Of a DNA stretch of 64,000 nt, positions 23,398 through 58,719 are shown piece by piece. Source of the DNA: an uncultured Synechococcaceae cyanobacterium (GTDB lineage: Bacteria; Cyanobacteriota; Cyanobacteriia; PCC-6307; Cyanobiaceae); contig CACGAJ010000001.1 of the NCBI GenBank assembly GCA_902570945.1, positions 3,256 through 67,255 on the forward strand, written 5' to 3'. Numbering within the stretch: the first letter of the stretch is position 1; each line of letters starts with the position of its first letter. A program made the translations under genes and the position numbers. The notes below the pieces were generated by a model that did not search any database, was not told where the DNA came from, and was given only the letters and a program-made list of their open reading frames with translations.

Positions 23398-23400
23398 TTT

Positions 23401-23460
23401 TTCGTTCACCCTCCTTGGAGGGCGCAGTTCGAGTCATACCATGGAACGGGGGATGGCCGT
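23401..23460 (+). ncRNA. Glutamine-II riboswitch (Downstream-peptide RNA motif)
   Basis: CGTTC-A-CCCTCC-TT-GGAGGG-CGCAG...ACCATG-GAACG-GGG: P1 CGTTC/GAACG plus P2 hairpin, directly upstream of a YRG-repeat peptide gene. Confidence 0.85.
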
Positions 23461-49520: not shown

Positions 49521-49602
49521 GGGTCGGTGCCCGAGTGGTTAAAGGGGGCGGACTGTAAATCCGCTGGCTCTGCCTACGTTGGTTCAAATCCAACCCGGCC
49601 CA
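49521..49602 (+). tRNA. tRNA-Tyr(GTA)
   Basis: GGGTCGG/CCGGCCC acceptor stem, anticodon loop CTGTAAA, long variable arm, GGTTCAAATCC T-arm. Confidence 0.97.
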
Positions 49603-49612
49603 CTTTAAAATT

Positions 49613-49684
<72 letters not shown>

Positions 49685-55950: not shown

Positions 55951-56340
55951 TTAAACTCTGCTATATCCAAATTTTGTTTTAAAGACCATATATGGAACTC
56001 CTGTTGCATTCATGGCTTCAATTACTTTATCTCCCACAGTTCCGTAAAATTCAACAGAAAGATCAGTTCCCAGTTCAGCATGAGCCTCAAGATAAACACC
56101 TAGTGCTGGATTAGCTAAATGAGCTAGTAAAGCATCATCATTTTTATAAACTTCTGACCATACGAAACGAAGTGGATCATTAGGATCTTGATCAAAAGTA
56201 TGATGGAGCATTCCAGGTTCATTAGCTTCAACAGCTTTATCTGTCTTATCTGCAATTTCTAAGTATTCTGCAACCTTATCTTCCTTAACCTTAAGTTTTG
56301 CAAGAAGCATAAATGGAGTTTCTGATCCAAAACTAGACAT
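55951..56340 (-). CDS. ABM/putative quinol monooxygenase-family (dimeric alpha-beta barrel) protein
   Basis: EANEPGMLHHTFDQDP..F.WSEVY....L.AHL; start MSSFG at 56340 (in-frame upstream ATG at 56385). Confidence 0.8.
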   Translation of the reverse strand: MSSFGSETPFMLLAKLKVKEDKVAEYLEIADKTDKAVEANEPGMLHHTFDQDPNDPLRFVWSEVYKNDDALLAHLANPALGVYLEAHAELGTDLSVEFYGTVGDKVIEAMNATGVPYMVFKTKFGYSRV

Positions 56341-56385
56341 AAAAAAAAGACTCTTGCGAGCCTGGATGATGGGGATTCCCATCAT
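56341..56385 (-). promoter_or_regulatory. Structured 5' leader: two hairpins plus U8 directly before the start codon
   Basis: Minus strand: ATGATGGG-AATC-CCCATCAT, then GGCTC-GCAA-GAGTC (GNRA loop), T8, ATG. Confidence 0.55.
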
Positions 56386-56468
56386 GACAAATTAATTAGA
56401 AACTAACAACTCCATCAATAGTTAATTTTCATTACTTACAAACACCATATGTAGTGCTAGGATTTTAA

Positions 56469-56531
56469 AAAAGGCTGGGTGATGGGGATTATCCCGCTTT
56501 TTAACTGGGGCGAAGCTAACGCCCTTTTTTT
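56469..56531 (+). ncRNA. Candidate ~60-nt small RNA
   Basis: Extended -10 TGcTAGGAT (56455-56463); 5' hairpin with G-U pairs valid only on +; terminator GGGCG-N7-CGCCC-T7; no + strand ORF upstream to terminate. Confidence 0.5.
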
Positions 56532-56679
56532 ATGGATATAACTTTCTAATAGCTTCTTGTTGTTCTTGTTTTTTTATTTCTTCAGCATCATAAACAGGAC
56601 AAGTATTCTGATTAAGTGATGAGTAAAAAGCACTCTTTTTAAAACGTTTGAATATAAGAGGTAATAATAACCTTTTCAT
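56530..56679 (-). CDS. Small hypothetical protein (49 aa) with MKRLLLP start
   Basis: Manual translation MKRLLLPLIFKRFKKSAFYSSLNQNTCPVYDAEEIKKQEQQEAIRKLYP*. Confidence 0.5.
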   Translation of the reverse strand: MKRLLLPLIFKRFKKSAFYSSLNQNTCPVYDAEEIKKQEQQEAIRKLYP

Positions 56680-57493: not shown

Positions 57494-57778
57494 TTATTCA
57501 GAAATCCAGCGGTTAATTATTGTCCCTTCATAAATATGACCGGAAGCCTCAACTATTGGTTTAGTTTCTGGGCTAACAAAGATGTCGTAACAAGTATTTA
57601 CTGGTCCCTGAAACATAACGGTTGCTCTTTTGGGGTCTTCCAATGATTTGCCAATATAAAAGGTTTTTACTCCCATCTCTTTAAACATGGCCTGTTGTTC
57701 AGGAGCATTCATATGTGCCTCATACTCCTCAAAAGTATTGCTTAATTTGAAATCTAAAACAGTTGTTTCAATTGACAT
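57494..57778 (-). CDS. DUF3764-family protein
   Basis: ETTVLDFKLSNTFEEY...GVKTFYIGKS..DP.RATV.FQ..ASGH. Confidence 0.8.
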   Translation of the reverse strand: MSIETTVLDFKLSNTFEEYEAHMNAPEQQAMFKEMGVKTFYIGKSLEDPKRATVMFQGPVNTCYDIFVSPETKPIVEASGHIYEGTIINRWISE

Positions 57779-57867: not shown

Positions 57868-58719
57868 CTAAAAAAGATTTCCCTGAATCTCTTTATTATC
57901 ACTTACAGGATTACAAACCAACTTTGAATATTGCTCGGAATAAGCACAATTTTTACAGGATAAATTTGGTTCCGGGATCTGGTCATTATTCATCAAAGAA
58001 ACCATCGCATCTATTTCTTCTTCGATCCAATCAATATTCCAATCATATGGAACTAAATATTCGTCAAAATTCATTCTTTTATTAAATTCCTCTTCATCTC
58101 TTTTTGCATTGCAAACTAAAAAATAAGATGTTTTGTGAACATCAAATCCCATTCCTTTTAGAAGATAGGCATAGAAATCCATTTGGATTTTATACCCCTC
58201 ATGATATGGATCATCAAGATAATCTTTTTTATCTACTCTCCCAAGTTTTGCTTGGGACTTGTAATCAACAACTATTAATTGCTTAGTAATTTTATGCTGC
58301 CAAATATCATCAACCCCTCCAGTCAAGATGATGTTTGTATCCTTATGACGAAGCATCAATCCTTTGTGAAGAGAGTTACGCCAATCATCTATCTCAGGAT
58401 GATCAAAAGGAACTAGATGACTTAAATCATTGTCGATAAATAATCTATGTGGAATTTGTCTTTCTCGGCAATAATCAAATTCTTTTTTTAAGAGCAAATC
58501 AGTAGTTTCATTTAAAGTCCATCCAGGTGTTCCTGGTGGATCTAAACCTTTTACTCTGTCCAAATAAAAACATCTTTTGCAGGTTAAAAAATTGGAAAAC
58601 CTTCCTCTACTTATTTTGAAATCATCTTTCTGATTTGGCGAATAAGACGAAGATGCTCTCGTCCTTAATCCAGTAGCTTTTACGGGTTCTTTTTTACTAT
58701 TTCTTTTAAGATCTATCAT
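57868..58719 (-). CDS. PD-(D/E)XK nuclease (RecB/AddB/Cas4-like, PDDEXK_1)
   Basis: S...NFLTCKRCFY, LTGGVDD, VVDYKS, QMDFYAYLL, C-terminal CKNC. Confidence 0.85.
   Translation of the reverse strand: MIDLKRNSKKEPVKATGLRTRASSSYSPNQKDDFKISRGRFSNFLTCKRCFYLDRVKGLDPPGTPGWTLNETTDLLLKKEFDYCRERQIPHRLFIDNDLSHLVPFDHPEIDDWRNSLHKGLMLRHKDTNIILTGGVDDIWQHKITKQLIVVDYKSQAKLGRVDKKDYLDDPYHEGYKIQMDFYAYLLKGMGFDVHKTSYFLVCNAKRDEEEFNKRMNFDEYLVPYDWNIDWIEEEIDAMVSLMNNDQIPEPNLSCKNCAYSEQYSKLVCNPVSDNKEIQGNLF

Follow-up and report, generated by a model that had tools for sequence, protein, structure and literature searches.

Protein regulators are scarce in Prochlorococcus, sigma factors number just five, and for most of the Yfr RNAs no function is known. 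Two of these RNAs, Yfr22 and Yfr23, are the closest described counterparts of the locus reported here; both were probably named by Voigt et al. in 2014, and part of the Yfr22/Yfr23 picture may already have been published. According to the supplement of PMC7368042 (Lott et al. 2020), Yfr23 is 67 nt long and has homologues in MIT9515, MIT9312 (twice), and MIT9301; the same supplement describes MED4 348681-348904(+) as "antisense of yfr23" and places MED4 yfr22 at 936753-936844, with a length of 80-91 nt. The tables and supplements of Steglich 2008 list nothing at MED4 ~348.8 kb. A text search of the literature for the sequence motif considered below returned nothing relevant, a search for PMM0367 was empty, and no function for Yfr23 was found in the accessible literature.

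A number of other systems resemble this locus in part. In the chbBC spacer/ChiX and AgvB/GcvB pairs, an RNA that carries a copy of a target site titrates a repressor sRNA; by analogy, Yfr23 would be a putative mimic of this kind, differing in that it is a stand-alone sRNA located head-to-head with a paralogue of the repressor. IstR-tisB and OhsC-shoB, with which the locus had initially been compared, share with it a divergent sRNA and a short complementarity to the 5' part of the neighbour transcript. They differ in that no conserved small toxin ORF was found in the module described below when it was examined as a possible type I toxin-antitoxin system, and it is on this small hydrophobic toxin ORF that the analogy fails; the neighbour is instead a 129-aa ABM gene or another gene, and the Yfr23/Yfr22-type pair is multi-copy, with a motif common to a sigma-factor gene. 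Finally, crosstalk between Yfr1/Yfr10 and Yfr2 in Prochlorococcus involves neighbouring sRNA genes with complementary C-rich (anti-SD-like) and G-rich motifs (PMC6778093, PMC2518516). While the idea that one sRNA neutralizes the other is the same, motifs and families are different, the Yfr1/Yfr10 and Yfr2 genes are arranged in tandem whereas those for Yfr23 and the Yfr22-type RNA are divergent, and the G-rich partner here appears to copy a specific mRNA start region.

We report a locus in a 64,000-nt stretch of DNA (the window) from an HL Prochlorococcus genome (1.04 Mb in 68 contigs, 65% complete). Our comparisons suggest that two catalogued, uncharacterised sRNA families pair with each other and with the invariant start region of a sigma-factor gene. 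If this pairing is real, a global regulator of the most abundant phototroph would be switched at the post-transcriptional level, and the pairing would explain the multi-copy state and genomic-island location of these RNAs.

A two-gene module ahead of an ABM-domain gene

The locus comprises the following features.

55951-56340, minus strand: ABM-domain gene of 129 aa (PF03992, E 1.6e-12), orthologue of PMM0367; its ATG (56338-56340) immediately follows the U8 tract
56341-56362, minus strand: intrinsic terminator GGCUC/GAGUC with GNRA loop GCAA (stem-loop 56349-56362), then U8 (56341-56348)
56361-56377, minus strand: seed AAUCCCCAUCAUCCAGG of the Yfr22-type RNA, the first 16-mer copy as read on this strand
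56366-56385, either strand: 8-bp hairpin ATGATGGG-GATT-CCCATCAT, perfect in the window copy
56410-56417, minus strand: internal G-rich box UGAUGGAG, complementary to both CCCCAUCA copies
56422-56435, either strand: position of an NtcA-type box (window copy TTA-N8-TAC), 22 nt upstream of the -10
56441-56458, minus strand: hairpin P2, AGCACUA-CAUA-UGGUGUU
56455-56463, plus strand: extended -10 of Yfr23, TGcTAGGAT (hexamer 56458-56463)
56470-56531, plus strand: Yfr23 homologue with a predicted TSS near 56470, a hairpin and then a terminator
56530-56679, minus strand: 49-aa ORF from the ORF list, orthologue of PMM0366, upstream of the module and kept in context A (see below)

The name PMM0367 is taken from peak tables in the supplement of PMC6778093. 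The original prediction, made from the letters of the window, had been a plus-strand sRNA with a 16-nt antisense match to the leader of the ABM gene. Both copies of the 16-mer were confirmed (CTGGATGATGGGGATT at 56362-56377 and CTGGGTGATGGGGATT at 56475-56490), with no further match in the window at up to two mismatches; the expected count is 0.03, and two matches were found in 0 of 100 shuffles. Also present as predicted were the plus-strand -10, the GGGG-loop hairpin, and the plus-strand terminator, as well as the GCAA hairpin and the U8 tract directly before the ABM ATG. The 16-nt complementarity between the strands was kept in 72 of the 72 distinct copies examined and also in other genera. 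No Rfam 15 family matched the region 56341-56531, either at gathering scores or at E values up to 10, in the search that had been suggested along with the prediction. The only Rfam matches in the whole window were a Glutamine-II riboswitch aptamer at 23400-23457 (+; 65.9 bits) and two tRNA genes at 49521-49602 (+) and 49613-49684 (+).

These elements belong to a module of ~195 nt (56341-56536), and exactly these borders recur in relatives (BLAST), often several times per genome. Every complete HL Prochlorococcus genome sampled carries the module, with 1-5 copies per genome located ahead of at least three different genes; it is present in 31 of 36 genomes of the same genus as well as in all 29 same-genus genomes of a family-wide draw, and the cyanophage search found no match among 50,697 phage records. 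The 73 copies gathered (72 distinct) were sorted into three contexts.

Context A: module directly before the ABM ATG (window copy, MED4)
Context B: module ~100 nt ahead of a DUF3303 gene (includes the second copy of the window's genome, on contig C26)
Context C: module ~120 nt ahead of an 84-aa gene

Overall, the distance from module to gene in contexts B and C is 100-125 nt; in both, an A-run forms the left border of the module and, read on the minus strand, represents a hairpin followed by U9, i.e., a terminator. The neighbours in other genera are unrelated genes. While RNAalifold applied to the whole module was uninformative on either strand owing to gaps, the comparisons of its individual elements described below indicate that the module is a two-gene small-RNA unit, apparently conserved in marine picocyanobacteria.

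Identity of the plus-strand RNA

The hairpin of the plus-strand unit (56470-56501) has 13-14 bp and a GGGG loop and contains the second 16-mer copy; it is followed by the terminator GGGGCG-N7-CGCCC-T7 at 56507-56531. The predicted TSS and the U-run are 62 nt apart, and the predicted RNA would be about 62-67 nt long. Nearly all copies fold into a 13-14 bp GGGG-loop hairpin followed by a terminator, and the -10 hexamer reads TAnnnT, with a variable middle, in 69 of 71 copies. In an alignment of 68 sequences, 92% of cells in the helix pair, and six pairs change on both sides, a number reached by 0 of 500 shuffles; because three pairs are nearly always G.U, the hairpin pairs on the plus strand only. 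The claim of a plus-strand sRNA gene is thus well backed by comparative evidence.

A covariance model (R1) built on the window's Yfr23 family matched only module copies within HL genomes, and in MED4 it matched 348778-348840(-) with 72 bits. Outside HL, homologues were found in LL Prochlorococcus (an LLI-type genus), MIT9211, a 2.1-Mb genus, and others; those in other genera each have an invariant GGGUGAUGGGGAU, a compensated stem, and a terminator of their own. The coordinates of the Yfr23 homologues in MIT9515, MIT9312 (twice), and MIT9301 in the PMC7368042 supplement equal R1 matches, and since the R1 matches coincide with the listed Yfr23 loci, we conclude from position and homology that the candidate plus-strand RNA is Yfr23, of which the window's genome carries at least two copies. 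MED4 Yfr23 shares with the window copy the type of locus (complement 348778-348840 adjoins PMM0367), the motif, the hairpin, the terminator, and the size, and nothing structural differs. The original prediction, which considered the pair an undescribed switch and did not recognise a known Yfr RNA, has to be revised on both counts, as the plus-strand unit coincides with catalogued Yfr23 and its partner is a Yfr22 paralogue (PMC7368042 supplement).

Depth on the Yfr23 strand in MED4 was 1.5-7x in paired 101-nt libraries, which are prone to lose a 67-nt RNA; because the RNA was probably lost in this way, the low depth does not count as a negative result and carries no information. That Yfr23 is expressed is taken from the PMC7368042 supplement. 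We rejected the idea that the AUG inside Yfr23 is used for coding, as the frame is not conserved; the 19-codon frame stops after 4 codons in MED4. Membership in the Yfr2 family was likewise rejected, given that both the CGRE1 promoter element of Yfr2 (GTTA..GTGTACAC-like..TAAC; PMC6191309) and the 5' motif are absent.

Identity of the minus-strand RNA

Two pairs of the minus-strand terminator are G.U; across 62 copies, 100% of its cells pair when read on the minus strand, compared to 77% on the plus strand, and the seed core CCCCAUCA is invariant in all copies. By contrast, the 8-bp hairpin, predicted as a perfect structure of the ABM leader, does occur in the window copy but is not conserved on the minus strand, where 65% of cells pair as compared to 93.5% on the plus strand (62 distinct copies); we read the differences in this alignment as probable G-to-A decay of one arm and not as a conserved minus-strand structure.

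MED4 Yfr22 consists of a 5' G-run, a spacer, UUCCCCAUCACCUGGCC, a terminator, and U10, with a P2-like hairpin upstream; the box of the module corresponds to its 5' G-run, which pairs with the seed in the predicted fold. Both MED4 Yfr22 and the module RNA have a G-rich 5' box, a spacer, a CCCCAUCACC seed directly before the terminator hairpin, and a U-run, and the PMC7368042 supplement lists the left half of a MIT9312 module copy as a Yfr22 homologue (72.9% identity). This shared box-seed-terminator build, together with the MIT9312 listing, identifies the "ABM leader" as a Yfr22-type RNA, the seed of which is, according to the predicted folds, partly sequestered by the internal box.

The module RNA is a Yfr22 paralogue beside Yfr23, whereas Yfr22 proper has no adjoining Yfr23. 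While the minus RNA of the module has the G-rich box, the CCCCAUCACC seed, the terminator, and the overall similarity to MED4 Yfr22 that characterize the family, it does not start at the G-rich box in MED4, as an 80-91 nt Yfr22 does; its start lies 65-110 nt further upstream than in Yfr22 proper, and it runs on into the ABM gene. As its MED4 5' ends are off the box and the RNA continues into PMM0367, it is best called, at least in MED4, a Yfr22-like domain in a longer RNA.

A shared motif in the start region of a sigma-factor gene

The 12-mer GGGTGATGGGGA occurs in 376 of 396 genomes of the family and in 35 of 36 genera, usually with 2-10 copies, while a reversed control was near zero. Once sites of the module and Yfr22 types are set aside, there is one further site per genome, and it covers the start codon of a sigma-70 gene, a sharing of the motif that the original prediction had not included. 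This site, which reads GAGGCCAGG-GUG-AUG-GGG-AUC-C, was seen in MED4, in the window's genome, in an LLI-type genome, and in a genome of genus g29; in MED4, the gene is PMM1697, a diel-cycling group-2 sigma factor. The start codon of the PMM1697 orthologue is contained in the sigma 18-mer CCAGGGUGAUGGGGAUCC. The 18-mer CCAGGGTGATGGGGATCC is single-copy in 62/63 HL, 13/13 g84, 23/24 g29, and 30/30 g61 genomes, with a reversed control of 0. Invariance of the 18-mer in a genome with 31% GC, including the rare GGG codon, points to selection on RNA.

Two seeds of the minus RNA were scanned against 5645 candidate start-region windows of the window's genome. In duplex predictions from long sequences, energies are inflated by large loops, and of these only core helices were used. 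The sigma start region ranked first of the 5645 for both seeds, with -39.2 kcal/mol for the first seed taken with its flanks (next best -29.9; mean -12.0, sd 4.3) and -36.4 kcal/mol for the second (next best -29.3). The duplex between seed and Yfr23, at -38.7 kcal/mol, is equally strong as that between the first seed and the sigma start; to the seed, Yfr23 thus looks like the sigma-factor start region.

Two further occurrences of the motif were observed in other genera. One genome of another genus (G318, g71) has 25 copies of GGGTGATGGGGA, compared to 2-10 elsewhere, which suggests a lineage-specific expansion of these RNAs. In the 2.1-Mb relative, a Yfr22-type RNA (L097/L102, G274:C3:129703-129831) is located 118 nt from a divergent gene for a 126-aa membrane protein, the start codon of which lies within the motif GGCUGGGUGAUGGGGAUC; this gene may represent another natural target, or else the source from which the mimic arose.

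Proposed circuit and candidate NtcA control

Building on the genes, structures, complementarities, and minus-strand transcription observed, the model we favour, with about an even chance of being correct, is that the Yfr22-type RNA represses the sigma factor and that Yfr23 is a target mimic or sponge, possibly controlled by NtcA. Yfr23 would be made from a promoter of its own as an RNA of ~62-67 nt that comprises a G.U-rich hairpin and a terminator, while the Yfr22-type RNA would combine a G-rich box in its interior with a C-rich seed (AUCCCCAUCA..CAGG) and a separate GNRA-capped terminator. The seed, being antisense to the start region of the PMM1697-orthologue mRNA, would most likely block translation of the sigma factor, whereas Yfr23, as a copy of that start region, would most likely titrate Yfr22-type RNAs, including the ABM leader. 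As the ABM start codon directly follows the terminator in the HL context, ABM would be made by read-through, with the Yfr22-type RNA as leader. Pairing in vivo and the direction of its effect are read here from sequence, and the intermolecular helices carry no proof by covariation because both the seed and the motif are almost invariant. The partial sequestration of the seed by the internal box also weighs against the model, as does the start of the MED4 minus RNA far upstream of the box.

A candidate link to nitrogen status is found upstream of Yfr23. In 43 of 72 copies, among them the second one of the window's genome, the sequence fits GTA-N8-TAC-N22-TAnnnT exactly; only six occurrences are found on both strands of this 1.04-Mb genome. 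The window copy itself reads TTA-N8-TAC-N22-TAGGAT, so that TTA replaces GTA; most ABM-context copies likewise have a degenerate half-site, and it was not seen in the LLI copy. From this layout we infer that the Yfr23 promoter may be under NtcA control in HL strains. The palindrome overlaps a minus-strand TAnnnT/A hexamer that precedes the box by ~7 nt and is a candidate promoter element for the Yfr22-type RNA; by virtue of this overlap, nitrogen status may set the balance between Yfr23 and the Yfr22-type RNA in these strains.

A more comprehensive version, which we put forward tentatively as possible but rather doubtful, would combine the Yfr23 decoy, the Yfr22-type repressors, and PMM1697 into a three-node RNA circuit with an NtcA switch, which marine Prochlorococcus and Synechococcus would have in common. 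One NtcA site would, in HL strains, turn Yfr23 on and the adjacent Yfr22-type promoter off, thereby coupling nitrogen status to sigma-factor translation, and Yfr22-like leaders would connect island genes such as ABM and DUF3303 to the circuit.

Transcription of the module in MED4

Raw reads of four MED4 runs from 2026 were mapped on the module locus (L012), with library strand set by the strand that dominates over all three sense genes, an assignment in which we have high though not complete confidence. In two stranded runs, 154 and 412 molecules started at L012:1611/12, forming a sharp 5' end; this position corresponds to window 56488/89, which falls within the Yfr23 gene and precedes the ABM ATG by 146 nt. 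An unstranded run had 5' ends at L012:1656/57 and 1691 (window 56442/43 and 56407). ABM-sense RNA in MED4 hence begins 100-146 nt upstream of ABM and reads through; relative to the start of the box, its 5' ends are 69 and 24 nt upstream and 11 nt downstream. Weak read-through from the 49-aa ORF (PMM0366) into the module was also seen. The minus-strand RNA thus exists and, as expected, begins upstream of 56362 in the MED4 homologue, although none of its 5' ends in MED4 falls at the TSS predicted for 56385-56395. No conserved TAnnnT -10 was found for the 5' end at 1611/12, which, for that reason, may have arisen by processing; staggered cuts of the RNase III type at 1611-1614 were rejected, as the geometry does not fit.

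MED4 also produces an RNA antisense to the 5' part of ABM (L012:1732-2000; window ~56100-56366, plus strand) at 10-25% of the sense depth, with a defined 3' end at L012:1732 (window 56366), just past the terminator hairpin. This RNA matches the 'asPMM0367' peak in the supplement of PMC6778093.

Alternative explanations

A narrower reading, which is compatible with the sigma-circuit model but which we consider rather unlikely, is that Yfr23 acts mainly on its neighbour, pairing with the 16-nt site just upstream of the ABM terminator and start codon and controlling termination or translation of ABM. The conservation of the complementarity and the duplex energy of -38.7 kcal/mol are consistent with local control, as are the MED4 data, where the ABM mRNA includes the site and, in two runs, also overlaps the 5' end of Yfr23 by ~20 nt. 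The fact that the ATG abuts the terminator in context A can be cited in its favour as well; however, the ABM start codon abuts the minus-strand RNA only in the window and related HL genomes. The module also precedes DUF3303 and 84-aa genes at 100-125 nt and unrelated genes in other genera, which does not bear out the proposal that the partner is a leader specific to ABM, and ABM adjacency is a lineage-specific juxtaposition. In addition, ~10 of 20 HL copies (context A) are followed by an ABM gene that is truncated or shifted, and the single-copy sigma start region better explains the invariance of the motif.

A second possibility, which we judge decidedly improbable, is attenuation, with the minus RNA acting as a cis-regulatory leader in which the box pairs with either the 5' or the 3' copy of CCCCAUCA. 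Pairing with the 5' copy would leave the terminator free, pairing with the 3' copy would overlap the first 2-4 nt of the stem and lead to read-through, and a ligand, a protein, or the kinetics of transcription would decide between the two. Conservation does extend to three elements that are complementary to one another (~92% of cells in the box pair with either copy), predicted folds alternate between both pairings among copies, and the minus-specific hairpins, i.e., the terminator and P2, pair in 100% of cells; P2, which pairs in 74% on the plus strand, has two G.U pairs, with observed changes from U.G to U-A or C-G. The 5' copy, however, is no more than the Yfr23 gene read in antisense, the terminator is overlapped to a small extent, and no box pair covaries; a comparison of cognate and non-cognate covariation between the box and the CCCCAUCA copies gave no signal, since the copies are invariant. 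Moreover, MED4 Yfr22 lacks the 5' copy and yet keeps box, seed, and terminator, MED4 depth falls by just ~25% at the terminator, with about three quarters continuing into the ABM gene, and there is no Rfam match.

That the repeats are transcription-factor sites, or relics of a duplication of the sigma 5' end without RNA-RNA function, is very improbable, since, although all three motif copies lie in or beside promoters and Yfr23 resembles a copy of the sigma-factor 5' end, the strand-specific G.U patterns, the terminators at both outer ends, and the transcription argue for RNAs, and the motif is retained at 2-10 copies in the 376 family genomes.

Genes adjoining the module

In about half of the HL genomes (loci L004, L006, L007, L009, L011, L013, L051, L052, and L078), ABM has lost its first ATG or is truncated; in these decayed copies, the first long ORF begins 28-128 nt downstream or measures 48-86 aa, which suggests frequent decay of the ABM gene while the module remains intact. 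Other small genes near module copies encode a DUF3764 protein (window 57494-57778, minus strand) and a DUF3303 protein (C26, L033:949-1260). These proteins and ABM would be expected to have a common small alpha/beta-barrel fold, and the module may mark a set of island genes of this type. A gene for a PD-(D/E)XK-like protein of 283 aa (window 57868-58719, minus strand) is located at a distance of 1.3 kb from the module; the orthologue of this gene in an LLI-type genome (L094:507-1367) is directly downstream of a module copy, and while the orientation differs, the neighbourhood of this gene and the module is loosely conserved.
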